A stretch of DNA of 32,000 nucleotides from an uncultured archaeon (GCA_963704435.1 OY969902.1:240001-272000), one strand, 5' to 3'. Counted from the first letter of the stretch, positions 8,908 through 32,000 are shown. Translations and numbers: made by a program. The notes: generated by a model from the letters alone, not told the origin.

Positions 8908-10401
8908 ATGAACATGGACGATCTGCTTGCTTTCACCAAGAGCAAGGGCTTCTTCTGGCCTAGCGCGGAGATATACGGCGGATTCGCGGGGATGTACGAC
9001 TACGGCCACCTGGGCGCGCTCCTGAAGAGGCGGTTCGAGCAGCTCTGGCTATCCTATTTCGTGGAGACGAAAGCGGATTACTACCTGATAGACTGCTCCA
9101 CCATACTGCCCGAGAAGCCGCTGGTCGCCTCGGGGCACGCCGCGCGATTCAACGACATCCTCGTGGGGTGCTCGAAGTGCCACACCTACTACCGGGCGGA
9201 CGTCATGCTGTCCGACTTCAAGATAAAGGTGTCTGAGGGCGCGAGCCCCGCCGAGATCGACGGGCTGATAAGCAAAAACGGCGTCGCGTGCCCCAAATGC
9301 CAGGGGAAGTTCCTGCCCTCGAAAGAGTTCAACATGATGCTTGACGTGCATCTCGGGCCCGAGAAGTCGGACAAGGGCTACCTGAGGCCGGAGACCGCGC
9401 AATCGGCATACCTCAACTTCTTCAGGGAGTTCAACGTTCTGCGCAGGAGCCTGCCGATGGGCCTTGCGGTGATCGGGAAGGCCTACCGGAACGAGATATC
9501 GCCGCGCCAGGGCCTTTACAGGATGAGGGAGCTGACCCAGGCAGAACTCCAGATTTTCTTCGACCCAGAAGAATTCGAGGCGGATTTCGACAAGCTGAAG
9601 AATGTCGAGATGACGGTCGTACCCTACAAGACGAAGAAGCAGGTCACCATAACCGCGGAGGAATTGGTGAGGGATTACGAGATTCCAGAGTTCTACGCCT
9701 ACCACATGGCTGCGATAAGGCTCTTTTACCAAAAAGTAATAGGCCTCCCGGACGAGAAGCTCAGGTTCCTGGAGAAGGGAGGGGACGAGAAGGCGTTCTA
9801 CAACAAGCTTCACATGGACATAGAGGTCGATGTGGAGAGCTGGGGCGGATTCAAGGAGGTCGGAGGGCTGCACTATAGGGGAGATTACGACCTAAGCTCC
9901 CACACGAAGGGCTCGAACACGGACCTCTCCGTTACGATAAACGGGAAGAAGATAGTGCCGCAGGTCCTTGAACTCAGCTTCGGGGTGGACAGGAACGTCT
10001 GGATGCTCATAGACGTCTTCTACAAGAAGGAAGGGGAGAGGAAGGTCCTGGCCTTGAAGCCTTGGCTAGCTCCTTTCAACGCAGCAATATTCGCGCTGCA
10101 GAAGGACGAGAAGATAAATGAAAAGGTGAGGAGCGTATCGGACTCCCTTAAACAGAAATTCAGGGTCTTCGTCGACGACTCGGGCTCCATAGGCAGGAGA
10201 TATGCCAGGATGGACGAGATAGGCACCCCGTTCTGCATAACTGTGGACTTCGACACCGTGACCGAGAGTTCCAAAGATTACGATACAGTAACCGTGAGGG
10301 ACAGGGACACGAAAACGCAGGAGAGGATAAAGATAGACAAACTTGCGGAATTTATAGGAGACCGGATAAACCCTCAAAGCCTGGAGCCTTACCCGCAGTA
10401 G
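8908..10401 (+). CDS. glyS: Glycine--tRNA ligase (class II, archaeal/eukaryotic dimeric type)
   Basis: The N-terminus KSKGFFWPSAEIYGGFAGMYDYGHLGALLKRRFEQLW is diagnostic for GlyRS. Also present: a zinc-ribbon insertion CSKCHTYYRAD...CPKCQGKF, the class II motif YRNEISPRQGLYRMRELTQAE, and a C-terminal anticodon-binding region IGRRYARMDEIGTPFCITVD. Confidence 0.9.
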   Translation: MNMDDLLAFTKSKGFFWPSAEIYGGFAGMYDYGHLGALLKRRFEQLWLSYFVETKADYYLIDCSTILPEKPLVASGHAARFNDILVGCSKCHTYYRADVMLSDFKIKVSEGASPAEIDGLISKNGVACPKCQGKFLPSKEFNMMLDVHLGPEKSDKGYLRPETAQSAYLNFFREFNVLRRSLPMGLAVIGKAYRNEISPRQGLYRMRELTQAELQIFFDPEEFEADFDKLKNVEMTVVPYKTKKQVTITAEELVRDYEIPEFYAYHMAAIRLFYQKVIGLPDEKLRFLEKGGDEKAFYNKLHMDIEVDVESWGGFKEVGGLHYRGDYDLSSHTKGSNTDLSVTINGKKIVPQVLELSFGVDRNVWMLIDVFYKKEGERKVLALKPWLAPFNAAIFALQKDEKINEKVRSVSDSLKQKFRVFVDDSGSIGRRYARMDEIGTPFCITVDFDTVTESSKDYDTVTVRDRDTKTQERIKIDKLAEFIGDRINPQSLEPYPQ

Positions 10402-10424
10402 ATGGACAAAAGGTTTGGAAAACC

Positions 10425-11063
10425 ATGGAAATCATAGTTTTCGGGGACAGCATAGCCTACGGGGCTTGGGACAAGGAAGGCGGATGGGTGCAGCGGCTCA
10501 GGAAGATTCTTGACGTTAAAACCCTATCGAATCCCGATCAGTTTTATCTCGTATACAATCTTAGCATTGATGGCGCGGACACTGAATTATTGCTAAAGTG
10601 CATCGATTCTGAAATAAAACACAGGATTCAGGGAGGTAGCCCTCTGATATTGATGTTTGCAGTGGGTGTGAACGACTCTTGTTTCGTAACAACTCAGAAT
10701 GCAAATGCGGTAAGTCAAGAGAAATTTGTCGAAAACCTGCGCTCCGTGATCGATACGGCGGAGCGATACACACAAACAATAGTTTTTGTTGGGCTCACTC
10801 CTGTGGATGAGTCAAGAACTACTCCCGTTTTCTGGGATGCCCAGAAACATTACAAAAACAAGAATATCAAAGAATACAATGAGTTAATAAGATCAGTATG
10901 CGAAGGAGAAAACGTACATTTTATAGACCTTTTTCAACGATTCGCAAAAACAGATTACAATGCCCTGCTTGAAGAAGGCTGGCACCCGAATAGCGAGGGG
11001 CACAAGGAGATTTTCGAGATTGTGAAGGCATACCTGATCGAGAAGAAGATTCTCGACTTATGA
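10425..11063 (+). CDS. SGNH/GDSL-family hydrolase
   Basis: Block I is IIVFGDSIAYG and block III is FAVGVNDS. Block V is GWHPNSEGH, with E rather than the usual D three residues before the His. The gene is visibly more AT-rich than its neighbours. Confidence 0.75.
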   Translation: MEIIVFGDSIAYGAWDKEGGWVQRLRKILDVKTLSNPDQFYLVYNLSIDGADTELLLKCIDSEIKHRIQGGSPLILMFAVGVNDSCFVTTQNANAVSQEKFVENLRSVIDTAERYTQTIVFVGLTPVDESRTTPVFWDAQKHYKNKNIKEYNELIRSVCEGENVHFIDLFQRFAKTDYNALLEEGWHPNSEGHKEIFEIVKAYLIEKKILDL

Positions 11064-11087
11064 AGCATGAAGAAAGAATGTGATTGA

Positions 11088-11456
11088 ATGGCAGGAACAA
11101 TAACGATAGAGGAAAACTTTGTCATATTCCGGCCCCATGGACTCGACAAGGTGTGGGCGCTCAAGAACGAACTGAAGATCCCACTGTCCCATGTCAAGGA
11201 CGTTTCGACGGAAAAGCAGGACTGGGCACTGTTCAAGCAGCTGAAGATGGGCGGAACGGGTCTGCCCGGAGTCATAAAGGCAGGGCGATGGCTGGGCAAG
11301 GAAGGGTTCCTGTTCTACGACATGCACAACCTTGACAACTGCGTCACGGTAAGCACCCAGAACGAGTTCTACACAAAGATAATATTCGAGGTCGAGGACA
11401 AGGAAGCCGCCGCGAAAAGGATAAGCGAAGCCGCGATGATGGCGAAACGCAGGTGA
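11088..11456 (+). CDS. Hypothetical protein (122 aa), possibly a bacterial-PH-like fold
   Basis: ORF with host-like codon usage, ending 4 nt before the next gene. The PH-like idea is only an impression from length and beta-rich pattern. Confidence 0.45.
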   Translation: MAGTITIEENFVIFRPHGLDKVWALKNELKIPLSHVKDVSTEKQDWALFKQLKMGGTGLPGVIKAGRWLGKEGFLFYDMHNLDNCVTVSTQNEFYTKIIFEVEDKEAAAKRISEAAMMAKRR

Positions 11457-11460
11457 TCGT

Positions 11461-12390
11461 GTGCCTTCCAAAAAGGGAAAAGTGGTCCGCGCGCGGAAAG
11501 ACGCGAATCCGGTGTTCAACGTAAAGGACTTCAGCCTCAGGCTGACTTTCGAGAGCGGCCAGCCTCTGGCCTTCTACGGCGACTATTCCTCGAAGGGCAA
11601 AGATGAAACATTGTCCTACGTGACGCGGCGCGGGCTCATAGAGGTGCGCTGCAGCAACTCCGGCGGATATTCCCGGATAAGCTGCAGGCACTCCGGCGAC
11701 TATACCGACGACTCCGCACGCGAGGACGCCTTCTGGAGGCTCGGGATGGGCCAGGACATGGGCAGGATATACTCCGCCATAAGCACGGACGCGTTCGTGG
11801 AGAAGGCGATCAGGGCCCACTACGGGCTGCGCATAACCAAGAGCGAGCCCTGGGAGGCCGCGCTCTGCTTCACGGTCTCGCAGTTCAACAACATAAAGAG
11901 GATACGGGGCATAATGGGGCGCCTGATCGACAGGTTCGGCGAGGCCCGCGAGGGAGGCGGCAGGAAGTTCCGCCTCTTCCCGAACCCTGCGGCGATAGCC
12001 GGCGCTGACGCCCGCGAACTGATGCGCTGCGGCGCCGGATACAGGGCGGCGTACCTAAAGAGCGTGGCGAAATGTTTCGCGGAGGATTCCGGCCTAGAGC
12101 AGCTTTACGAGAAGGACTACGACAGCGCGAAGAGGGAGCTGCTGGGTATCCACGGCATCGGGGACAAGGTCGCGGACTGCATCCTCCTCTTCGGCTACGG
12201 CAAGCTCGGGGCCTTCCCGGTGGATACATGGATAAAGAGGACCGTCGAGCACACCTATTTCGATGGAAAGAAGAAGAGCGTGCCCGAGATACACGCGTTC
12301 GCCGACGGAAAGTGGGGACCGTACGCGGGCTACGCCCAGCAGTACCTGTTCTGGCACGGCAGGTCGACTGCTGTCGGAAAGTCGAAGTGA
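11461..12390 (+). CDS. ogg: 8-oxoguanine DNA glycosylase/AP lyase (Ogg1-type, HhH-GPD)
   Basis: OGG_N-like start FSLRLTFESGQPLAF. HhH-GPD motif LLGIHGIGDKVADCILLFGYGKLGAFPVDTWIKR, containing the catalytic-type Lys (GDKVADC) and Asp (VDTW). GTG start. Confidence 0.8.
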   Translation: MPSKKGKVVRARKDANPVFNVKDFSLRLTFESGQPLAFYGDYSSKGKDETLSYVTRRGLIEVRCSNSGGYSRISCRHSGDYTDDSAREDAFWRLGMGQDMGRIYSAISTDAFVEKAIRAHYGLRITKSEPWEAALCFTVSQFNNIKRIRGIMGRLIDRFGEAREGGGRKFRLFPNPAAIAGADARELMRCGAGYRAAYLKSVAKCFAEDSGLEQLYEKDYDSAKRELLGIHGIGDKVADCILLFGYGKLGAFPVDTWIKRTVEHTYFDGKKKSVPEIHAFADGKWGPYAGYAQQYLFWHGRSTAVGKSK

Positions 12391-12476: not shown

Positions 12477-13367
12477 ATGCCGGATTCAAGATGCAACAGG
12501 CATTTCAGGTCGCAGTCCGCGATGGAGTACCTGATGACCTACGGATGGTCGATCCTCATAATCACGGTGATCCTGGGCGCGCTCTACAGCGTCGGCGCGT
12601 TCGGATCGTCGAACATCGGCCCCCGCGCGCCTCCGGGGAACTGCAAGATATTCCGGTCGTCGGGCGAGGCCAACCTCGAGGGCACGTGCGGCGGTGTCCT
12701 GCCGCAGCAGGTCGCGCAGTTCAACGGCCAGAGCTATGTGTATGTGGGCAGCAATGCGTTGCAGATGAACAACCTTGCGACCGCTTTGACGGTGTCCATA
12801 TGGGCGGATCCGCAGAGCCTAGGCCCCAACAGCCAGTACCTGTTCTCCAATTCGAGAGATAGCGGTGGCACTTACAACGGTTACAATCTGTATGTGTCCA
12901 ACACCGGAGTGCCTATCTTCCTAGTATGGAACCTGGCCTCCAACAGCGTATCGGGGGGCACGCTAAGCATGAACGCGTGGTACCAGGTGGCAGGCGTCTA
13001 TGACGGATCGTACCTTTACATATACGTGAATGGTGCGCTTAAAAACAAAATCGCGTATTCTGGAGGGGTAGGCGTACCTTCGTCCTACGGCGCGCTGATA
13101 GGCGTGCTCGCATATAATTATCCTACGTATTACAAATTCGTAGGAGACCTTGCGAATCTGCAGATTTACAACACCTCCCTCGACGCCAATCAGATACAGA
13201 CGCTCTACATCAAGGGCATAGGCGCCGCTCCGGTGGATCCGTATCACATTATAGGATGGTGGCCGCTGAACGGCAACGCCACTGACTACAGCGGAAACAA
13301 CAACGGCGGAGCAGCGACCAACGTCATCTACACGGGCTCGTGGCTTTCGGGATATACCCCTCCTTAA
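12477..13367 (+). CDS. Class III signal peptide (archaeal type IV pilin-like) protein with a LamG/concanavalin-A-like lectin domain
   Basis: RSQSAMEYLMTYGWSILIITVILGALY matches the archaeal prepilin motif ((K/R)(G/A/S)-QSAMEYL.TYGW plus a hydrophobic helix). LamG_3-like blocks are LTVSIWADP, WYQVAGVYDGSYLYIYVNG and FVGDLANLQIYNTSLDANQIQTLY. Confidence 0.7.
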   Translation: MPDSRCNRHFRSQSAMEYLMTYGWSILIITVILGALYSVGAFGSSNIGPRAPPGNCKIFRSSGEANLEGTCGGVLPQQVAQFNGQSYVYVGSNALQMNNLATALTVSIWADPQSLGPNSQYLFSNSRDSGGTYNGYNLYVSNTGVPIFLVWNLASNSVSGGTLSMNAWYQVAGVYDGSYLYIYVNGALKNKIAYSGGVGVPSSYGALIGVLAYNYPTYYKFVGDLANLQIYNTSLDANQIQTLYIKGIGAAPVDPYHIIGWWPLNGNATDYSGNNNGGAATNVIYTGSWLSGYTPP

Positions 13368-13412
13368 GCGGACTAAAAACCCGAAGTCAGGAATCGGGAT
13401 AGAAGAGGAAAG

Positions 13413-14472
13413 GTAGGGACTTGACAAATTTTAAGTCTTTGCACCCAATATGATTTCGGGGGTTTTCTCTTCTCTTTTTATCGTCGGGAAAATAAGGTCG
13501 TGAGTCTCCTGGACGGCCGATACGTCAGTGTATCGACCGCCTTGCCAGGAGTTGAAGACAATGGAAATCTATGAACTAAAGAATAAAATAATAGAAGTTT
13601 GGGCTGCGGCTAAGGTGATCGTGCAGAAGTTCGGGCATACGAGGAAGTTTGCGAAGCATCTTGTCGCCTTTGCGATAAGGCAACATGAGAATCTTACCGA
13701 CGTAAGACTCGCGGAGTTCCTAGTCAGGGACCCGATAGGAAAGATCCTTGGTTACACGAGGAAGCCGCATCCGTCGACCTTCTCGAAGGTGCGGGAACGG
13801 TCGGATGCGGAGATGTTTGCGGAACTGCACAACTGGATAGTGCAGGACCGGATGAAATCAAGGCAACTGCGACTTATCGTGCAGGACAGTACCGACGTCT
13901 TCGCATATTCGCGCAAGGACGGCGATGCGAGGTGGGGGCACAGAACTCCGTCAAGGAAAGAACAACTGATGCAAAACCTCGGCAATGGGAAAGAACTGTT
14001 CTTCGGTTATAAACCACATGTAATCGTAGAAGCCGAGACGGAAACGCCACTTGCAATTGAGGTCATACCTGCGAACACAAACGACAAGAAGATGTTCTGG
14101 CCGCTGTACGACAGAGTAAAGAAGACCTTTCAACTGCAGTATCAGTCAAAATACATTGCGGATGCACAGTACCACGCATCAGCGATAAGGATGCAGTTGC
14201 GCGACGATGGCCTAACTCCAGTAATCCCGAGAAGCGGCAACAAGTATCTGAAAACAGAGAACCCGAAGGATCCGGAGTATGGGAAGAGGTGGGCCGTCGA
14301 ACACCTCTTTGCAAGGTTGAAGGAGCTGTTCGGGCTTGCAAAGAACAGGTTCGTTGGCATAAAGAAGGTCAGGATTCACGTGTTTTCCTGCCTCCTCGCA
14401 AACCTGATCGAATACGTGATGTGAAGGGGTTTGTATTTGACGAGGTGACTGAATGTAAATGTCAACTCCCTA
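13413..14472 (+). mobile_element. Complete IS element (about 1060 bp, IS4/IS5-superfamily DDE transposase) with terminal inverted repeats and a 6-bp target site duplication
   Basis: The left end TAGGGACTTGACA (13414-13426) matches the reverse complement of the right end TGTCAACTCCCTA (14460-14472) at 12 of 13 positions. GGAAAG is directly duplicated at 13407-13412 and 14473-14478. The GC content is lower than in the flanks. Confidence 0.75.
13528..14424 (+). CDS. DDE transposase (DDE_Tnp_1, IS4/IS5-like)
   Basis: Motifs: LIVQDSTDVFAY (D), KYIADAQYHA (D), and KRWAVEHLFARLKELFGLAKNRFVGIKKVRIHVFSCLLANLIEY (the E-containing C-terminal signature). The listed start is GTG at 13528. ATG at 13561 (MEIYELKN) is an alternative. 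Confidence 0.8.
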   Translation: MYRPPCQELKTMEIYELKNKIIEVWAAAKVIVQKFGHTRKFAKHLVAFAIRQHENLTDVRLAEFLVRDPIGKILGYTRKPHPSTFSKVRERSDAEMFAELHNWIVQDRMKSRQLRLIVQDSTDVFAYSRKDGDARWGHRTPSRKEQLMQNLGNGKELFFGYKPHVIVEAETETPLAIEVIPANTNDKKMFWPLYDRVKKTFQLQYQSKYIADAQYHASAIRMQLRDDGLTPVIPRSGNKYLKTENPKDPEYGKRWAVEHLFARLKELFGLAKNRFVGIKKVRIHVFSCLLANLIEYVM

Positions 14473-14522
14473 GGAAAGTCCCCTCCCTCAGGGATATAAA
14501 CCTATTCAGCGGATTCTAGTCC

Positions 14523-24151: not shown

Positions 24152-26833
24152 TCACACAGTTTCTTCTATTAGTTCTATTTCTTTTTTATCAGATATTCCA
24201 TAAATGTTGTATACTTGTTCATTGATTTCTTTATCTATTCTTTGAATCTCATCTTTCAGCTCGATAGCCCTATTTGTTTTATCCTTTGTTTCCATGAGTT
24301 CATTATTTAGCGAAATAATCCTATCTACTAATTTTATAATTTGATTCTGTTTGGTTTTATCTTTTTTGATAGGTATCTGTTTTAAGTAAATTCGTTTAAT
24401 GTTAATATCGACAAAAAGTTTTCTAAACCAATAATTAATCAGGTTGGAATTTATTATTCCGAGAACATATTTAGTTGAATAGCCTAAGCTTTCGTCAATT
24501 ATTATATTATTTAGGTTTTGAAGAGTATAGTATTTTTGATTATCATAGGCTACAATAAGCCTTCTTGGTAATTTCAGATTTCTTATGAGTTGAACTAATA
24601 ATTTCTGCTCATTTAGATATACTCTCTCATCCCAACAGCCTCCGCCTGCACTACTTTTATCAAAATAAATATATTTGTTATTAAATCTCAGCCAGTATCT
24701 TCCAATATCTCTACCACTTAAGAGGGGTTTATATTTGCTATTTTTCTGAGTATCAAAAATACATTCTTTATTATTACGAGTTACCATACCTCTATAAACT
24801 TCTCCTATCTCTCCAAGAGGTATTGAACCTCTTTCTATCTTCTTCTTTATACTATCAAAGCGGTCATCTACAACTACATTAAAGGAGTAAAAGTTAGATT
24901 TCAAAAAGGATTTTTGATATATTTTCTTTTTATCTTTGATTTTCAACTGAGCAGAATTGCTGTCTCCAGAATAAAATGTAAGCTTATTCTTTAATCTAAC
25001 TTTTTCATCGGATTCTTTTTGGAGTATAAGTATACAGGTATCTACATTTGCTGATTTAAAGACGTCTTTTTTCAAATCGTATATTTGTAAGATTATGGTT
25101 TTATCAAGTATGAGTTTTCTAAGATTACAAAAATATTTGTTGTTTATTATGCTGTTAGGTATGATGAATCCTAAAATTCCACCATCTTTAAGCAAGGATA
25201 TTGCCCTTTCTATAAATAATGCAAAAAGGTTGGGATTAGATTCGGCAGATACATAACCTTTGTCAGATTTGTAAAATTCATATTCATCTGGGTTCTCATT
25301 TGAATATATGACATCGTATGGTGGATTTCCTATTATAATGTCAAATCCGCCATTGTCAAGTATCTCTTTAAATTTTGACCGCCATTCAAATGCATTTTCT
25401 TTTGCGACAGTTTCATCATCTATTAAAGAATTACCATTTTTGATATTCTGTTTTAAATCTGGTAGCCTGTGTTTTGTCTCTGCAATCCTCAATAATAAAT
25501 TAAGTTCGGTTATTTCTACTGCTTTTCTATCAAGGTCAACGCCAAATATGTTATTCCTTAAAACCTTGGTTTTATTTGTAAGTCTCCTTAAGATGTCTTC
25601 CTTATTGACATCTAATTCTGTTTGAGAATAATTTTTATTCTTCTGTTTATAACATTCATCAAGAAAATCAAATGCACCTAAAAGGAAAGAACCAGAACCG
25701 CAAGCCATATCTAAAACTTTTATATTTTCAATATGATTGGGCTTTTTATTTTTTATTGCATTTCCTATAGTATTTTCAACAATATAATTGACTATATATG
25801 TAGGCGTATAATATATTCCTTGATTTCTTCTGAATACTTGAATATTTCCTATATATTTTTCATACATAGAGCCTAATACATTTGCATCAATTTCATTGAA
25901 TTTATATTGATAAATATCGTTTTTATCATAGGTTTCTTTAAGTATTTTATAATATGTTTTGTTATCTATATTAACAAGTTCTGCTTCATGTCTCTCAGAA
26001 AAATCTGATTCGTTATAAGTAAAAAGTTTACTATCGTAAACTTTATCATATTCTTCAAATAATTTGTTAACTTTATCTTTTATTATGATATATCTATTAT
26101 TATCATACTGATTTAAAATTTCCTTTAAAGTTTCATCAGACTTTGCTTCAAGTTTTCTATCCTCTACAGTCCTAATAAATATTATTCTATTAAGTAAAAT
26201 CTGTGCGATTTCTTCCAACGCTTCATCTGAATGTGGTTTTTTATTATTCTTCTTGATGGAAGAGATTATCTTTTTACGCCATGATAGAATATCATTAAGA
26301 AGTTCTTCATCTATTCTAATAGTCTTTTTTATTCTTCCTTCCTCTTCGGCTATTTTATCTATCCGTCCTGTTTCAAAACTTTCTCTTGATAGAAGTAATA
26401 TGTCATCTAATTTTTCAATAAGTTTTTTGTAATTTATGCGCCTAAAGATATGGTTTATGAGTGATGCTTCTTTTGTATCGCAGATTAAAATTATAGTCTC
26501 TTCGAAGTTAGATAATACTGCCCACCTTTTATTTTTATTTCTTCCATAGTTCAATGCCTGAATTATGTCTCCTTCTTCGATGCTTTTGACCTTTTTTGTT
26601 TCTAAGAAAAAGGCTATGCTATTGTTTAAATAAAAAATATAATCAGGTCTTCCTTGTGGTTGATTCTTTTGTTCTTTAACTTCATCAGTATCATCCATGC
26701 GCCAACCAAGATAACCAAAAAGGGGTTCAACATATGCTCTACAGATATCTCTTTCTGATTCTTCACTATGGTCTTTGCTATCAAAGTCCCGAATTTTCTT
26801 AATTAGATTCTTCTTCAGAAGTTCTTTATCCAT
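24152..26833 (-). CDS. Type IIG restriction-modification enzyme: PD-(D/E)xK nuclease, N6-adenine methyltransferase and TaqI_C-like specificity domain in one polypeptide (Eco57I-like)
   Basis: N-terminal HsdR_N-like nuclease core GRPDYIFYL...AFFLETKK. SAM motif VLDMACGSGSFLLGAF. Catalytic motif IIIGNPPYDV. The C-terminal region (YWLRFNNKYIYFD...LGIINSNLINYWFRK...LKQIPI) resembles the TaqI_C target-recognition domain. Confidence 0.85.
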   Translation of the reverse strand: MDKELLKKNLIKKIRDFDSKDHSEESERDICRAYVEPLFGYLGWRMDDTDEVKEQKNQPQGRPDYIFYLNNSIAFFLETKKVKSIEEGDIIQALNYGRNKNKRWAVLSNFEETIILICDTKEASLINHIFRRINYKKLIEKLDDILLLSRESFETGRIDKIAEEEGRIKKTIRIDEELLNDILSWRKKIISSIKKNNKKPHSDEALEEIAQILLNRIIFIRTVEDRKLEAKSDETLKEILNQYDNNRYIIIKDKVNKLFEEYDKVYDSKLFTYNESDFSERHEAELVNIDNKTYYKILKETYDKNDIYQYKFNEIDANVLGSMYEKYIGNIQVFRRNQGIYYTPTYIVNYIVENTIGNAIKNKKPNHIENIKVLDMACGSGSFLLGAFDFLDECYKQKNKNYSQTELDVNKEDILRRLTNKTKVLRNNIFGVDLDRKAVEITELNLLLRIAETKHRLPDLKQNIKNGNSLIDDETVAKENAFEWRSKFKEILDNGGFDIIIGNPPYDVIYSNENPDEYEFYKSDKGYVSAESNPNLFALFIERAISLLKDGGILGFIIPNSIINNKYFCNLRKLILDKTIILQIYDLKKDVFKSANVDTCILILQKESDEKVRLKNKLTFYSGDSNSAQLKIKDKKKIYQKSFLKSNFYSFNVVVDDRFDSIKKKIERGSIPLGEIGEVYRGMVTRNNKECIFDTQKNSKYKPLLSGRDIGRYWLRFNNKYIYFDKSSAGGGCWDERVYLNEQKLLVQLIRNLKLPRRLIVAYDNQKYYTLQNLNNIIIDESLGYSTKYVLGIINSNLINYWFRKLFVDINIKRIYLKQIPIKKDKTKQNQIIKLVDRIISLNNELMETKDKTNRAIELKDEIQRIDKEINEQVYNIYGISDKKEIELIEETV

Positions 26834-26836
26834 AGT

Positions 26837-27352
26837 CTAATCCCTTCGTGTTAAGAGATATGCCCCAAGTCCAATTGCCAAAATTCCAGCTATGCCTATT
26901 GCAATTTTCTTATTTCTATCATCAGTTTCTTTTTGTTTTACTTCATTCGCTATTTCAGAAGATAAACTTTTCAACTGAGTTAATACATTAATTAATTCAG
27001 GAATATTCGTTCTATTAAATTCATATGATGTGGATTTAAATCTTGCTGGTTTAGGAACATCTATTCCTCTTTCTGTAAACACATAGGCAGGACGATTAAA
27101 AGCATGTATTACTCCTAATTCCCACATTACCATATCACGTGTATTTTTATTTTCTATTACATTTTTCGTTATAAAAATAAATGCACTATGTGAATTATAG
27201 ATAGCTCCTATGAGTTTTTCGTGTAATGGACTCGGCTCTGCTGGTTGTAGTTCAGCAAGATATGGAAAGATATTTCCATTTTCAATTTGTGAAACTAAAG
27301 CAGTTATATCTAAATCATCTGAACTATGCGAAATAAAAATTTGAATGGCCAT
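26837..27352 (-). CDS. TIR-like domain protein with a C-terminal transmembrane anchor
   Basis: The start MAIQIFISHSSDDLD matches the TIR beta-A/BB-loop pattern (FISHS..D). A conserved-type Glu lies in VMWELGVIHA. The C-terminal hydrophobic helix IAIGIAGILAIGLGAYLL is followed by TRRD. The stop is 3 nt before the R-M start. Confidence 0.6.
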   Translation of the reverse strand: MAIQIFISHSSDDLDITALVSQIENGNIFPYLAELQPAEPSPLHEKLIGAIYNSHSAFIFITKNVIENKNTRDMVMWELGVIHAFNRPAYVFTERGIDVPKPARFKSTSYEFNRTNIPELINVLTQLKSLSSEIANEVKQKETDDRNKKIAIGIAGILAIGLGAYLLTRRD

Positions 27353-27353
27353 G

Positions 27354-27521
27354 CTATTCCTCTGGTTCTTTCCAGCCTTGCGCTTCTATCTCATCGTCTA
27401 ATGCTTTCTGCACAAAACGAGATAGGTTAATGCTTTTTGCCTCGATAAATCGCTGATGCTTAGGCAATAAAGTAATAGTCTTGGGTATCGCCCTTTCTAT
27501 TGGTTTTCTTTGTTTTCCCAT
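27354..27521 (-). CDS. Unlisted 55-aa ribbon-helix-helix (CopG/Arc-like) protein (MGKQRKPIERAIPKTITLLPKHQRFIEAKSINLSRFVQKALDDEIEAQGWKEPEE)
   Basis: Hand translation of the minus strand, from ATG at 27521-27519 to TAG at 27356-27354. A beta-strand (KTITLL) followed by INLSRFVQKALDDEI fits the RHH pattern. The stop is 1 nt before the TIR gene ATG (27352). Confidence 0.55.
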   Translation of the reverse strand: MGKQRKPIERAIPKTITLLPKHQRFIEAKSINLSRFVQKALDDEIEAQGWKEPEE

Positions 27522-27524
27522 GTT

Positions 27525-27578
27525 ATACGTATTATACGCAAAGCTATATATACCTATTCATTCGTAATACGTATTATA
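27525..27578. promoter_or_regulatory. Two identical 12-mers ATACGTATTATA (each with the palindrome ATACGTAT), 42 bp apart, in the divergent promoter region
   Basis: Copies lie at 27525-27536 and 27567-27578. They flank a CTATATATAC TATA-like box (27544-27553), between the RHH start (27521) and the likely transposase start (27603/27609). Confidence 0.35.
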
Positions 27579-27602
27579 AGTGTAATAAGTAAGGTGCGAT
27601 GT

Positions 27603-28799
27603 ATGGATATGAGAAGGATAAAGGGACAACAGATAGCGCAGACTTGTCAGATACAGAAGAAAGACGAATACAATTGGATAGTGCCGAGCCAGTCGGGGAG
27701 AAGTAGTTATAGGGTAAGCCACTATGGAAAGGACTTCAAGTGCAACTGCCCTGACTACGAGCTAAGGCAACAGCCATGCAAGCATGTCTACGCAGTCATG
27801 GAGATAGTCCTAAAGTGGTTAGACAAGCAGGGAAACGAAACTACAATGACAATAAAGAAGAAAGTCTATTCGCAGGATTGGCATCAGTATAACATAAATC
27901 AGGAACAGGAGAAAGGCAAGTTTATGGAACTGCTGAAAGACCTATGCCAAGAAGTGCCAGAACCGCCATACGTATTCGGAAGACCTACCATAGCCATAAG
28001 GGATTTGCTGTTTTCTTCAACCTTAAAGGTCTATTCTCAATTCTCTTTGAGGAGATTTAAGTCCGATTTGGGAATAGCAAAAGAGAAGCAATTGATAGGG
28101 CAATTGCCTTCAAGGTCTGCGATAAGCGAGTTCATGCAGAGCGAGGAAACAACTCCAATTCTTAGCAGATTGATACAGCTATCGGCGTTGCCTTTAAGGA
28201 GCGTAGAGAAGGACTTTGCAGTAGACAGTAGCGGATTTAGGACTACGAAGTTTAGTGAATATTGCAGAGAAAAGCACAACACGAAACAGCACCATGAATG
28301 GATTAAGTGCCACGTAATGACAGGCGTTAAGACCAACATCATAACTGCCGTAGAAGTGGGTTTTGAGAATGATGCAGACAGCCCTAAGTTTATACCTCTT
28401 GTAAATGCAACTGCCAATGTGGGTTTTGATATGGAAGAAGTGTCTGCTGATAAAGCCTACAACTCGATAGAGAACTACAACGCAGTTCAGGCAGTAGGCG
28501 GAATTGCATACATACCTTTCAAGAGCAATGCGACTGGGCAGTCCAACAGAACCAATGGCAATAAGGCAAGGTTGTGGCGCAAGATGTTCCACTACTTCCA
28601 GCTTAACCAAGATGAGTTCTTGGAGCATTACCATAAGAGAAGCAACGTGGAAACGACGTTCTTTATGATAAAGGCGAAGTTCAATGATTTGCTGAAAAGC
28701 AAAACGAGAACGGCACAGATGAATGAGTTGTTGCTAAAGATTCTGTGCCATAATATTGTAGTCGTAAATAACGAAATTAACAACATAAAATTAACTTAA
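27603..28799 (+). CDS. DDE transposase (IS4/IS5-like C-terminus) with an N-terminal SWIM zinc finger
   Basis: SWIM motif CNCPDYELRQQPCKHVYAV (CxCx10CxH). DDE-type blocks FAVDSSGF and VSADKAYNS. The C-terminal signature is KRSNVETTFFMIKAKFNDLLKSKTRTAQMNELLLKILCHNI. The track ORF starts at 27510, but that extension overlaps the RHH gene and the promoter, so Met32 or Met34 (27603 or 27609) is preferred. Confidence 0.7.
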   Translation: MDMRRIKGQQIAQTCQIQKKDEYNWIVPSQSGRSSYRVSHYGKDFKCNCPDYELRQQPCKHVYAVMEIVLKWLDKQGNETTMTIKKKVYSQDWHQYNINQEQEKGKFMELLKDLCQEVPEPPYVFGRPTIAIRDLLFSSTLKVYSQFSLRRFKSDLGIAKEKQLIGQLPSRSAISEFMQSEETTPILSRLIQLSALPLRSVEKDFAVDSSGFRTTKFSEYCREKHNTKQHHEWIKCHVMTGVKTNIITAVEVGFENDADSPKFIPLVNATANVGFDMEEVSADKAYNSIENYNAVQAVGGIAYIPFKSNATGQSNRTNGNKARLWRKMFHYFQLNQDEFLEHYHKRSNVETTFFMIKAKFNDLLKSKTRTAQMNELLLKILCHNIVVVNNEINNIKLT

Positions 28800-29320
28800 A
28801 CTTTCTTTTGACTCTGTCTTTTTATAAACTCAGCTCTATATAGACCATATCTCATAATTGTCCCGATAGTTAGCAATACAGCAAATACTGCATAGGAAGT
28901 AAAGAAGGTAGAGAAAAAGAATAGCAGAATATTTTCTATGAGATTTGATGAAACATTTACAAAAATAGAAGAGACTATATCTATAGAAATGCTCACTCCT
29001 GCTAAAATTGATGAATACCAAAAAATGAATAATAAGCTATCGTAAATCTTGTTCTCTCTTAATAATGAAACGAAATCATTATCTGACATTGATACGAGTA
29101 TTGTCAAAGATGCAATAACAATTGCTATCATACCCGAAGCTATTGTAGCGTATATTGGTGATATAACTTTGAGTAAAGTTATTACCAATCCTGACTGATA
29201 ACTTATACTGGTAAAAATAATGGCAAGTGCCAATGCTAAAAGAAAATCAACAGAAGTAATTAACTTTGTTAGCTTATATTTCCTAAGCATAGCAAAGAAA
29301 GTCGTATCTTCGTATCTCAT
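28796..29320 (-). CDS. Small integral membrane protein (about 4 TM helices)
   Basis: Hydrophobic segments: VDFLLALALAIIFTSISY, IYATIASGMIAIVIASLTILVSM, LLFIFWYSSILAGVSISIDIVSSIFV and ILLFFFSTFFTSYAVFAVLLTIGTIM. The ATG overlaps the upstream gene stop (ATGA). Its stop overlaps the convergent transposase stop (TTAA). Confidence 0.65.
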   Translation of the reverse strand: MRYEDTTFFAMLRKYKLTKLITSVDFLLALALAIIFTSISYQSGLVITLLKVISPIYATIASGMIAIVIASLTILVSMSDNDFVSLLRENKIYDSLLFIFWYSSILAGVSISIDIVSSIFVNVSSNLIENILLFFFSTFFTSYAVFAVLLTIGTIMRYGLYRAEFIKRQSQKKV

Positions 29321-29871
29321 TTCTTTTCCTCCCCTTTGAGATATTTCTTAAATCTGGTTAGCAATATCTTGATTAAATTGTCTGATTTTTTAAGTGGGAT
29401 TGTCTCTCGTATAATATTATCTTTTGAAGAGATGGTCTGTGTTCCTTCTCCTTCCACTCTTGCCTTATAAGCTCCATAACCCGCATCACTTAAACCAATA
29501 GCTTCTCTTACAATTCCACCTTCTGCTTGGACATTTAATCCTTCTGGATTGTCAAATTGCATTTTGCCATCTTCTATTCCAGATTTATGAAACATTTCAT
29601 CTAATTTTTTGAATATTTCTTTATCATCAGGATTTGAGGGTATGAGCTGAAAAGTTACTCTGACTACTTTTTTATCTTTGAGCATAGTGAATACTCTGCC
29701 TTCTTCCACCATGAGACGTATTTTCATTGCAGTTAAATCAGGAAAATAAGAGAGATAAGAATTTTCAAATATCTTAACGAACTTCTCTATCTTTATATCT
29801 GGCCTTCTCTCTTCAAATATGATGGTCTGCGTTTTTGGATGTATTATGAAGTTGGAGGCTTTGTTTAACAA
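29317..29871 (-). CDS. Hypothetical soluble protein (184 aa), translationally coupled to the membrane protein
   Basis: ORF in the roughly 30% GC block. There is a 4-nt ATGA overlap with the downstream gene. The listed start is TTG at 29871, and the first in-frame ATG is only at codon 49, so the N-terminus is uncertain. No family recognised. Confidence 0.5.
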   Translation of the reverse strand: MLNKASNFIIHPKTQTIIFEERRPDIKIEKFVKIFENSYLSYFPDLTAMKIRLMVEEGRVFTMLKDKKVVRVTFQLIPSNPDDKEIFKKLDEMFHKSGIEDGKMQFDNPEGLNVQAEGGIVREAIGLSDAGYGAYKARVEGEGTQTISSKDNIIRETIPLKKSDNLIKILLTRFKKYLKGEEKK

Positions 29872-29930
29872 GTCAAAATCTGTTTGATATGTTCTGGATT
29901 CTGTTTAAAAAGTCAGCCTTCAGTTAGTTC

Positions 29931-30404
29931 TCAAATTGACAATGCGCCCATGCTCTTTGCAGTATCTATCTTAATTCCTAATTCCCTCAAAATAGACATG
30001 CCTATTATTGGGTGATTCTGAGTTATGGTTTTCCCATCCTCTCCAGCAGCATCGCACTGATCTGCCTTATCGCATACCGTACATATGAAATAAATTTCCT
30101 TCGAGAGAATTCTGATTTTGCCATAGAAGTTATTCGGTTTACAATTGCGTTTCACACGGTCATCAACAAACCAAGTCTCAGCTCTATCATCTGTTGGGCA
30201 CAAACCAATCTCTTTAGCTAACTCTTCTGGAATAAGGGATATCTGTGCTCCAGTGTCTATGAATGCTAAGACTTTACGGCTCCCTGAGGAGCCCGTTAAT
30301 TCTACCCATTCATGAACTTTAAATGCAGTAGTAGAACCCTCTCTGGCTAAGGTGCTGCGGTAGCTTTCCAGAACTCTCTCCTTGGTTTCGTTTGTGCATT
30401 CCAT
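29931..30404 (-). CDS. Retropepsin-like (clan AA) aspartic protease domain protein
   Basis: VLAFIDTGAQISLIP carries the D-T-G-A active-site motif in a hydrophobic context. The C-terminal HPIIGMSILRELGIKID matches the retropepsin I-I/L-G-x-D/S-x-L motif. An inserted Cys cluster is present (CKPNN...CTVCDKADQC). Confidence 0.6.
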   Translation of the reverse strand: MECTNETKERVLESYRSTLAREGSTTAFKVHEWVELTGSSGSRKVLAFIDTGAQISLIPEELAKEIGLCPTDDRAETWFVDDRVKRNCKPNNFYGKIRILSKEIYFICTVCDKADQCDAAGEDGKTITQNHPIIGMSILRELGIKIDTAKSMGALSI

Positions 30405-30470
30405 AGCATTCCCATTTTACTAATAGCTAAAAGATTAATATTTTGAGAGCATAGTCAAAGCGATACTTCT

Positions 30471-30839
30471 ATGGATAACCTTACAAAGTCGCAAAGGAGC
30501 CATGTGATGTCAACCATAAGAAGCAGGAACACGGCCCCAGAGTTGCGCATCAAGAAGCTGATGCAGGCGTTAAACTTTCGCTACCAGCCAAAAGGCATCT
30601 ATGGAAAGCCTGACTTCGCAAACAGGAAGGAGAAAATAGCGGTGTTCATCGACGGGTGCTTTTGGCACGGATGTCAGATACACTACAAGACTCCTACGAG
30701 CAACGTGGATTTCTGGAAAAGAAAAGTGAGCACGAACATCAAGCACGATAGGAAAGTCTCGTATGTGCTGAGGGTGGAAGGATGGAGAGTCATCAGAATA
30801 TGGGAGCATTCTATAACTGCGCTTGAGTCTAAGGATTGA
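30471..30839 (+). CDS. vsr: Very short patch repair endonuclease (Vsr)
   Basis: SHVMSTIRSRNTAPELRIKKLMQALNFRY...GKPDFANRKEKIAVFIDGCFWHGC...VIRIWEH matches Vsr family signatures. Confidence 0.85.
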   Translation: MDNLTKSQRSHVMSTIRSRNTAPELRIKKLMQALNFRYQPKGIYGKPDFANRKEKIAVFIDGCFWHGCQIHYKTPTSNVDFWKRKVSTNIKHDRKVSYVLRVEGWRVIRIWEHSITALESKD

Positions 30840-30852
30840 GCCAATCCAGGGA

Positions 30853-30860
30853 TTTAAATA
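30853..30860 (+). promoter_or_regulatory. Canonical archaeal TATA box TTTAAATA upstream of the cytosine methyltransferase gene
   Basis: TTTAAATA ends 30 nt before the ATG at 30891. This is consistent with a TSS a few nt upstream of the start codon. Confidence 0.4.
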
Positions 30861-30890
30861 TCTTGACTTCTACAACCAACTGTGTGAGCT

Positions 30891-31949
30891 ATGCACTCCA
30901 AGGGTACTGCTGTAGATCTCTTTTCTGGGGCAGGGGGTGCAAGCGAGGGGATTGAGCAGGCAGGTTTTGAAGTGGCTGCCGCCAACGAGATAAATGCACA
31001 TGCCGCACTTACCTACAAGTTCAACCATCCAGACACCGAGCTGATACAGAAAGATGTGAGGAAACTCACTTCGAAAGAGCTGCTCAGGACAGTAAATAGG
31101 ATTGATTTGCTCTTTGCAGGGATTCCATGCCAAGGGTTCTCGAACGCAGGCAGGAAAGACACGCACGACCGCAGAAACTATCTCTTTCGTGAAGTCATAA
31201 GGCTGGCACGTGAAATAAAGCCACCCTTTGTCCTCATCGAGAACGTAGCTGGGTTGCTTGCGCAGAGAAATCGACCTTTTCTCGGTCTGATTGAAGCGGG
31301 CATGAAGCGGACGGGGTACACCGTCTCACACAGATTGTTCGACACATCGGAATTCGGGGTTCCGCAGAGAAGGAGGCGGATTCTGATATTGGCATCTCAG
31401 GATAAAGATGTAACACTGGAATCTTTTAGCTGGAAAAGTCCAGAGGTTGTATCAGTAATGGGGGCTATCGGCGACCTCGATTTCCTGGACCACGGCATTG
31501 CAGCAGAATATCTTAAACTTCCAAGGACACTTTATCAGAAAAAAATGCGTGGAAGCCAAAAGGAGTTATGGAACCACGAAACAGCAAGGCATTCGAGAAA
31601 GGTGGCGAGAAGATTTTCAATCTTGAGGGAGGGAGAGGTGATGCGTACTGCGCTCCCGCGAAGCAGGACAAGGAAGATATACACCGTCAAGCTTCAGGGT
31701 GGAGAGCTATCACCCACAATGACAACTATGCCAGACGACTATGTTCATTATGCACTACCGAGGACGCTCACGGTGAGAGAGATGGCAAGATTGCAGTCCT
31801 TTAGAGATTCATACCTCTTCCTTGGCCCAAGGACCACAGGCGGCACGTTGAGGAGGATGAGCGTCCCTCAGTACACGCAGGTCGGAAATGCCGTGCCGCC
31901 ACTCTTTCTGAAGCAAATTTGCCTTTTGTTGGCGAAAACAATGAGCTAA
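30891..31949 (+). CDS. dcm: DNA (cytosine-5)-methyltransferase
   Basis: Motif I is VDLFSGAGGASEG and motif IV is GIPCQGFSNAG. Motif VI is LIENVAGL, motif VIII is QRRRRILILA, and motif X is QVGNAVPP. Confidence 0.9.
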   Translation: MHSKGTAVDLFSGAGGASEGIEQAGFEVAAANEINAHAALTYKFNHPDTELIQKDVRKLTSKELLRTVNRIDLLFAGIPCQGFSNAGRKDTHDRRNYLFREVIRLAREIKPPFVLIENVAGLLAQRNRPFLGLIEAGMKRTGYTVSHRLFDTSEFGVPQRRRRILILASQDKDVTLESFSWKSPEVVSVMGAIGDLDFLDHGIAAEYLKLPRTLYQKKMRGSQKELWNHETARHSRKVARRFSILREGEVMRTALPRSRTRKIYTVKLQGGELSPTMTTMPDDYVHYALPRTLTVREMARLQSFRDSYLFLGPRTTGGTLRRMSVPQYTQVGNAVPPLFLKQICLLLAKTMS

Positions 31950-32000
31950 AGGCAGCAGTTAACTCTGCGGTTCACCGAAAAGTATATATATCTATTTGCC

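Follow-up and report, generated by a model that had tools for sequence, protein, structure and literature searches.

The DNA considered here is a 32,000-nucleotide stretch from an uncultured archaeon (GCA_963704435.1 OY969902.1:240001-272000; "the window" below means this whole stretch), in which a low-GC block (30-42% GC, against ~60% in the core genome) carries three co-directional open reading frames (ORFs) on the minus strand, at 29931-30404, 29317-29871 and 28796-29320. An earlier note, made from the sequence alone, had combined the three into an abortive-infection module consisting of a protease, an adaptor and a membrane protein. Our analysis reproduced the coordinates of all three ORFs, confirmed the 4-nt ATGA stop/start overlap that joins the 184-amino-acid (aa) ORF to the 174-aa ORF, and bore out by hydropathy analysis the four hydrophobic segments of the 174-aa protein. 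We interpret the genes differently, considering it highly probable that window 28796-29856 is the remnant of a RexAB-like gene pair, that its RexA-like member, a DUF4747-type gene, has been cut by a transposon, and that the protease-like ORF is unrelated cargo of that transposon. The features at the locus are the following, with TM standing for transmembrane and 4-TM for four TM segments:

28796-29320, minus strand: RexB-like 4-TM gene, 174 aa, apparently intact (from hydropathy and homologues)
29317-29871, minus strand: 184-aa ORF with a TTG start
29317-29856, minus strand: 3' remnant (codons 110-288 and the stop) of a 288-aa RexA-like DUF4747 gene, recognised by its identity to the intact protein P0001
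29848-29856, minus strand: one 9-bp copy of the target-site duplication, TCCAACTTC, codons S110-N111-F112
29857-29873, plus strand: terminal inverted repeat GGCTTTGTTTAACAAGT, which holds the TTG "start" (29869-29871) of the 184-aa ORF
29857-32000: left 2.1 kb of a ~7.16-kb transposon that continues beyond the window end to about 37017
29904-29911, minus strand: TTTTTAAA inside the subterminal motif GACTTTTTAAACAGA (direct repeat family D2), with a putative function only
29931-30404, minus strand: retropepsin-like ORF, 157 aa, the terminal cargo gene of the transposon

An insertion junction inside the DUF4747 gene

Used as a query, the 184-aa ORF recovered a 288-aa protein annotated as DUF4747 (P0001), with 100% identity from residue 110 on, revealing that what had been taken for a protein of no recognisable family is residues 110-288 of a DUF4747 protein and not a whole gene. 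The first five codons of the ORF (LLNKA) come from within the transposon's terminal inverted repeat, stop codons close the reading frame upstream of the TTG, and the N-terminal 109 residues of P0001 are encoded nowhere in the window. On six public contigs of the same population (L001-L006) the 288-aa gene is whole and the 174-aa gene comes next; the window DNA matches them at 99.7-100% identity, with the match ending abruptly at ~29857, and upstream of the DUF4747 gene in these intact alleles there is no protease but an oppositely oriented DEAD-box helicase gene. The DUF4747 gene is also uninterrupted on an 839-kb sister-sample contig that shares the same core flank (a 278-aa protein, the DNA topoisomerase VI B subunit, Topo VI-B, and others). 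At the window's locus the two genes are not both intact, the sensor gene being split after codon 112, and the 59-bp gap described between the first and second ORFs, while present as a gap, contains the boundary of a mobile element at 29856/29857.

The element itself is seen on a 7163-bp contig (L007), one end of which coincides exactly with the junction and which matches window 29857-32000 at 100% identity. Both ends of this contig carry 17-nt imperfect inverted repeats (I3), GGCTTTGTTTAgaAAGT and GGCTTTGTTTAacAAGT, of which GGCTTTGTTTAacAAGT corresponds to window 29857-29873, and the contig begins with ..TC ahead of the repeat; the terminal inverted repeat occurs a single time in the window (0.03 expected) and had no match in 107 other loci. 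The cargo runs in the order retropepsin-like ORF, Vsr, Dcm, HATPase_c_3 ATPase, 46-aa ORF, 335-aa DDE transposase, N4/N6 methyltransferase and BglI/SfiI-like restriction endonuclease. Within this cargo the HATPase_c_3 (GHKL) protein, of 499 aa, adjoins the Dcm and Vsr genes, and the N4/N6 methyltransferase and BglI/SfiI-like endonuclease form a second restriction-modification (RM) pair in the same element (L007 3298-6549). The 335-aa transposase is 63% identical to the SWIM-DDE transposase encoded elsewhere in the window but is without its N-terminal SWIM part.

The reciprocal side of the insertion is visible among recorded proteins. The 184-aa ORF is recorded on an 852,977-bp contig as P0160, reading LLNKA+SNFIIHPK, and a 115-aa protein (P0167), whose contig is also 852,977 bp long and whose sources are the same, is the 5' half, reading MRNDW...LAQSYSNF+GFV*, where the tail GFV* (GGC TTT GTT TAG, GGCTTTGTTTAG) is the other terminal inverted repeat; this far junction was seen as protein (P0167) only and not as DNA. 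The codons for S110-N111-F112 (TCCAACTTC) stand on both sides of the element and form a 9-bp target-site duplication, a length typical of DDE transposition. A target duplication of 2 bp was rejected, as its predicted product was not found and P0167 shows 9 bp. The locus presents terminal inverted repeats, a 9-bp duplication, an internal 335-aa DDE_Tnp_1 protein and six uninterrupted contigs. In its 17-nt imperfect terminal repeats, its target duplication, its internal DDE_Tnp_1 gene and the empty site in sister genomes, the element resembles IS4/IS5-type DDE transposons with passengers, from which it differs in carrying ~6 kb of cargo (two methyltransferase-based modules, the GHKL ATPase and the protease-like ORF).

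We conclude that a ~7.16-kb DDE-type transposon has inserted at codons 110-112 of the RexA-like gene, duplicating TCCAACTTC, such that the window keeps only the 3' 179 codons, fused to five transposon codons, and the 5' half lies ~7.2 kb away, beyond the window end. At the far end, a simple insertion would give the reverse complement of the terminal inverted repeat, GGCTTTGTTTAGAAAGT, with ...CAATCTTACTCCAACTTC ahead of it and the DEAD-helicase/NUDIX flank coming next.

Were the 29856/29857 junction a metagenome assembly chimera, there would be no real interruption at all, and the sharp GC shift, the short-read contigs that break exactly here and the presence of both alleles in one sample could each be read that way. 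We regard this as extremely unlikely, however, given that the break falls precisely on the outermost base of a 17-nt terminal inverted repeat whose counterpart closes the element 7.16 kb away, that the reciprocal junction is a called 115-aa ORF on the 852,977-bp contig with a clean 9-bp duplication, and that an independent Logan assembly holds the junction 31-mer. In the Logan assembly of another sample, one contig extends exactly 30 nt (k-1) past the junction, where another contig begins, so that intact and interrupted alleles coexist in that population.

As for the consequences of the insertion, the RexA-like sensor is very probably non-functional in this strain, because the remnant is without most of the N-terminal globular-domain strands of the AlphaFold2 (AF2) model and without the native TATA-like promoter and the conserved ATTATAAG-type box that is found ~30 nt upstream of the intact gene's ATG; the whole Rex-like system is probably inactive here. 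The "adaptor" of the original proposal is in fact this truncated RexA-like sensor. Another disrupted DUF4747 allele occurs on a 6969-bp ENA contig (P0169/P0004), where a frameshift near residue 140 breaks the gene into ORFs of 148 and 131 aa; this could reflect either another, independent inactivation or a sequencing error in a homopolymer.

The transposon end may still provide transcription of the 4-TM gene. The subterminal motif GACTTTTTAAACAGA (window 29900-29925, minus strand) stands 20 nt after the protease stop and recurs in the same orientation at both transposon ends (L007 11-56 and 7095-7120), with two copies of the D2 repeat upstream of the endonuclease gene at the other end and one near the protease stop. 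GACTTTTTAAACAGA and the TTTTTAAA within it could be an outward-facing TATA-like box or an oligo-T terminator. Taken as a TATA-like box, or replaced in that role by read-through from the protease gene, the transposon end could drive a newly made unit of truncated RexA-like protein (dimerisation domain only) and 4-TM protein with altered or constitutive activity. The placement of GACTTTTTAAACAGA upstream of the endonuclease gene at the other end, its outward orientation here ~40 nt before the TTG, the open 184-aa frame and the retained ATGA coupling to the 4-TM gene all agree with such a unit, but the TTG is without an evident ribosome-binding context, most of the globular-domain strands are gone, and the motif could equally be an oligo-T terminator. 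We judge a new unit of this kind very unlikely, and favour a pair that the insertion has inactivated.

The 157-aa ORF does possess the motifs on which its designation as a protease was based, namely DTGA at residues 50-53 (within AFIDTGAQ, 47-54) and IIGMSIL at 133-139, together with Cys residues at 69, 88, 108, 111 and 117. Of the retropepsin-type assignment, the DTGA loop stands, while the Pfam/NCBIfam match is restricted to ~35 residues (local alignments confined to residues 42-77, and to 42-76 for the two Pfam profiles) and lies at or below the cutoffs: PF13650 scored 24.6 bits against a cutoff of 24.3, with profile positions 7-39 of 90 aligned, PF13975 scored 27.3 against 28.2 bits, and TIGR03698 scored 25 against 57. 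The Pfam match stayed as short when the Cys-rich insert was removed, the best match among PDB sequences was Ddi1 (E 0.28), and a single-sequence AF2 model (predicted local distance difference test, pLDDT, 45) was too poor for a fold search. The ORF resembles clan AA retropepsins (PF13650/PF13975, TIGR03698; Ddi1 RVP) in its hydrophobic-DTGA and C-terminal IIGMSIL motifs and differs from them in that only ~35 residues align and that the extra segment between the motifs is Cys-rich. The spacing from DTGA to IIGMSIL presumably exceeds that of the 90-aa Pfam model by ~25 aa (this from the sequence and general knowledge of the family, not confirmed by alignment). In the databases searched, its homologues were identical copies only, and such copies stand beside Vsr and Dcm on L007 and L008. 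We regard the ORF as an orphan among the transposon's cargo genes, possibly retropepsin-like.

Whatever its family, the protease is not part of the DUF4747-4TM module: the retropepsin-like ORF, Vsr and Dcm neighbour the pair only by accident, because they are cargo of the inserted transposon. A single three-gene, protease-triggered, membrane-disrupting operon, as the earlier note proposed, is scarcely credible; the three ORFs are co-directional and close together in a defence island, and DTGA is present, but the transposon end and the target duplication lie between the first and second ORFs, the second ORF is truncated, the protease is known from identical copies only, and none of the nine lineages of the pair compared below has a protease beside it. 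Nothing speaks for a protease-triggered mechanism, and what is left of the proposed module is a conserved two-gene unit with a membrane partner in a defence/mobile island. No new protease-triggered system exists here, and a false lead is thereby removed.

The DUF4747 protein and its membrane partner

An exhaustive phmmer search with P0001 returned 207 representative proteins, nearly all of 270-300 aa, and Pfam DUF4747 (PF15931) was matched by 27 of the 72 phmmer-linked family members that were aligned (best E 9e-14). Modelled with AF2 from the family alignment (pLDDT 91.4, predicted TM-score, pTM, 0.87), P0001 was compared by Foldseek with 350,542 PDB chains, where lambda RexA (8TWQ) came first (E 4e-4, prob 1.00, 307 columns, full length) and RdgC (PDB 2OWL) second, with full-length coverage (E 8.7e-4); a structural relationship between RexA and RdgC has been reported for RexA itself (PMC11077077). 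The RexA/RdgC-type two-domain fold is therefore that of the intact allele P0001, of which the window copy keeps residues 110-288 only. In BFVD, five uncharacterised tailed-phage proteins also matched (E 1e-13 to 3e-7).

A profile search of PDB sequences gave no match, and the link to RexA came from the fold search alone. The Pfam models for RexA and RexB (PF15969/PF15968) did not match the pair, lambda's own proteins scoring E 1e-97 and 8.5e-92 as a control. With tblastn, P0001 had no match among 50,697 phage records or in the plasmid collection, and scans of genome contigs for the DUF4747 family gave no confirmed locus with alignment A3, while alignments A1 and A2 were too divergent.

The 174-aa partner has TM segments at about 21-41, 58-76, 105-123 and 131-152, with a short, charged central loop. 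The expectation that the two genes are kept as neighbours elsewhere was borne out: when nine DUF4747 lineages (27-100% identity) were compared, the next gene downstream in eight of them encoded a homologue of the 174-aa protein, 171-203 aa long and with four hydrophobic segments; the pair either overlapped or stood at most 35 nt apart. Identity across the other lineages is 27-91% for the DUF4747 protein and 28-91% for the TM protein. The exception is the P0005 lineage (L012 5860-6499), which has 116-aa and 98-aa proteins, each with one TM segment, in place of the 4-TM partner. The TM family had no Pfam or PADLOC match, and against RexB the sole aligned segment of the 4-TM protein was TM2 plus the central loop, which was not significant. 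The ATGA overlap, for its part, suggests translational coupling of the pair.

Beyond the pair itself, the window's transposase-pair arrangement recurs in lineages P0002, P0005 and P0006. In four lineages (the window's, at 27354-29856, among them) the DUF4747-4TM pair has a convergent SWIM+DDE transposase linked to it, and in three a small ribbon-helix-helix (RHH)-like ORF, with identities that co-diverge (across L109, L097 and L012/L014: DUF4747 91/48/41%, transposase 78/57/60%, RHH 67/-/68%); the window's 55-aa RHH-like ORF shows 67-68% identity to small ORFs beside the transposase in L109 and L097. Upstream contexts of the linked block differ between L012 and L013, and no terminal inverted repeats bounding the DUF4747-4TM-transposase-RHH block were found.

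Such linkage raises the prospect that the pair is real and mainly serves the linked mobile element, by way of maintenance or addiction, superinfection exclusion, or a lysis/lysogeny-type switch as RexA/RexB also do. Besides the co-divergence with transposase and small RHH gene in four lineages, this would agree with RexA binding DNA non-specifically and biasing the lambda switch independently of RexB (PMC11077077), and with Butters gp30 working largely alone. We nevertheless think it unlikely, in that the transposase is absent in four of the nine lineages (a fifth contig being too short to tell), every tested homologous architecture excludes phages, and the pair sits among RM and TIR genes.

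Several points weigh against our reading of 28796-29856 as a transposon-split, RexAB-like defence pair. P0001 itself falls below the Pfam DUF4747 cutoff (21.2 against 27 bits), as does the window remnant (20.3 bits). The global TM-score of the Foldseek match to RexA is 0.35; a low score would be expected if two hinged domains were posed differently, and the value fits a hinged two-domain protein, though it remains weak. BLASTP and hhalign (single-sequence templates) against lambda RexA/RexB and CarolAnn gp44/gp43 found nothing significant, and PADLOC gave no hit for the pair. The placement of both gene halves on one contig is inferred from identical size and sources and not from DNA. Finally, a defence or membrane-depolarisation role for this family in archaea is putative and drawn by analogy.

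Flanking genes and the archaeal host

The flanks hold the defence and mobile genes that had been described, a type IIG RM enzyme, a TIR-like protein and a SWIM+DDE transposase on one side and Vsr and Dcm on the other:

24152-26833: type IIG RM enzyme, 893 aa
26837-27352: TIR-like protein, 171 aa, with a C-terminal TM helix (weak ThsB and CAP12-TIR matches)
27354-27521, minus strand: CcdA/RHH-like small protein, 55 aa (weak PF07362 match), first gene of the RHH-TIR-type IIG operon
27603-28799, plus strand: SWIM + DDE_Tnp_1 (IS5-like) transposase (Pfam and NCBIfam matches), convergent with the 4-TM gene, the stop codons of the two overlapping
30471-30839, plus strand: Vsr very-short-patch endonuclease, transposon cargo (PF03852, E 6e-25)
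30891-31949, plus strand: Dcm-type C5 cytosine methyltransferase, transposon cargo (PF00145, E 8e-65)

The RHH, TIR-like and type IIG genes form a tight operon (window 26837-27521), and in L109 the equivalent small ORF stands before a type ISP enzyme, with no TIR gene there. Rfam and tRNA scans found no RNA genes in the window. Two more GC dips (46-50%) occur within the 60% GC core, at 10000-11500 and 13000-14500, the second coinciding with a 298-aa ORF (13528-14424) whose counterpart on the sister contig is a DDE_Tnp_1 transposase.

The host is identified as archaeal by Nop5, Topo VI-B, HerA and a methanopterin-type radical SAM enzyme, and Topo VI-B shows 75-78% identity to metagenome-assembled genomes of Candidatus Micrarchaeota. 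The host is a Micrarchaeota (DPANN) archaeon, and the ~0.85-Mb source contig fits a near-complete DPANN genome. At the same locus in the sister genome (L001 11600-20000; L103 500-9600, on the 839-kb Micrarchaeota contig), the RHH-TIR-type IIG genes give way to a low-GC element with genes for Cas1, a Peptidase_A4 protein, a Zn-ribbon protein and a fusexin homologue (HAP2-GCS1/Fsx1) of 781 aa.

The presence of intact and disrupted alleles in one population represents defence-island turnover in a genome of only ~0.85 Mb, and the locus offers a natural case in which a transposon with defence cargo of its own (RM, Dcm/Vsr) has disabled another defence gene. The DUF4747-type family comprises ~200 representative clusters (50% identity) in a representative library of 1.84 billion proteins, and PADLOC models miss it.

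Proposed role and known Rex-like systems

The intact unit encodes a 288-aa cytoplasmic protein with the RexA/RdgC fold and, downstream, a four-helix membrane protein of 174 aa. In the mechanism that we propose, modelled on lambda RexAB, Sbash gp30/31 and CarolAnn gp44/43, the soluble protein would sense an infection-associated nucleic-acid or protein signal and would then activate its membrane partner, with collapse of the membrane potential and abortion of virus growth as the presumed outcome, as work on lambda and actinophages suggests. Speculating further, DUF4747+4-TM might be a working DPANN antiviral abortive-infection system, missed by PADLOC and travelling and diverging together with a convergent SWIM-DDE transposase and a small RHH regulator next to RM genes, whose recurrent inactivation in a single Micrarchaeota population (by a transposon here, possibly by a frameshift elsewhere) reflects the cost of a suicide module that collapses the membrane in an ultra-small episymbiont; we put this forward as a tentative idea that may well prove wrong.

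Where the earlier note could match its module to no named system, the pair does match one, the RexAB-like or DUF4747/CarolAnn type: it is an archaeal DUF4747 + 4-TM addition to the known abortive-infection modules, insertionally inactivated here. This extends to a DPANN archaeon the Rex-like DUF4747 + 4-TM exclusion architecture earlier documented in lambda and actinobacteriophages and included in lists of bacterial immune operons. RdgC, a recombination-associated DNA-binding protein and the second-best structural match to P0001, differs in standing alone as a ring-forming dimer, with neither a membrane partner nor a role in defence. The combination of a DUF4747 protein with a 4-pass membrane protein is the architecture of lambda RexAB, Sbash gp30/31, CarolAnn gp44/43 and Butters gp30/31; experiments have demonstrated exclusion of heterotypic phages by the actinophage Rex-like systems (PMC6426596, PMC6426606, PMC7542560), and DUF4747/CarolAnn is listed as an immune operon (PMC13373217).

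Compared with the Sbash, CarolAnn and Butters systems, the pair described here likewise joins a DUF4747-type cytoplasmic protein to a 4-pass membrane protein, whereas the actinophage proteins are longer (337-372 aa), and family-profile hhalign against CarolAnn gp44 and gp43 finds nothing. Relative to lambda RexA/RexB (PF15969/PF15968; 8TWQ), the pair is without significant sequence similarity, occurs in an archaeon, is located in a chromosomal island, not in the immunity region of a prophage, and, in the window copy, is split by a transposon, while sharing with them the arrangement of co-directional adjacent genes in which a ~280-aa soluble protein is followed by a ~145-175-aa four-TM protein.

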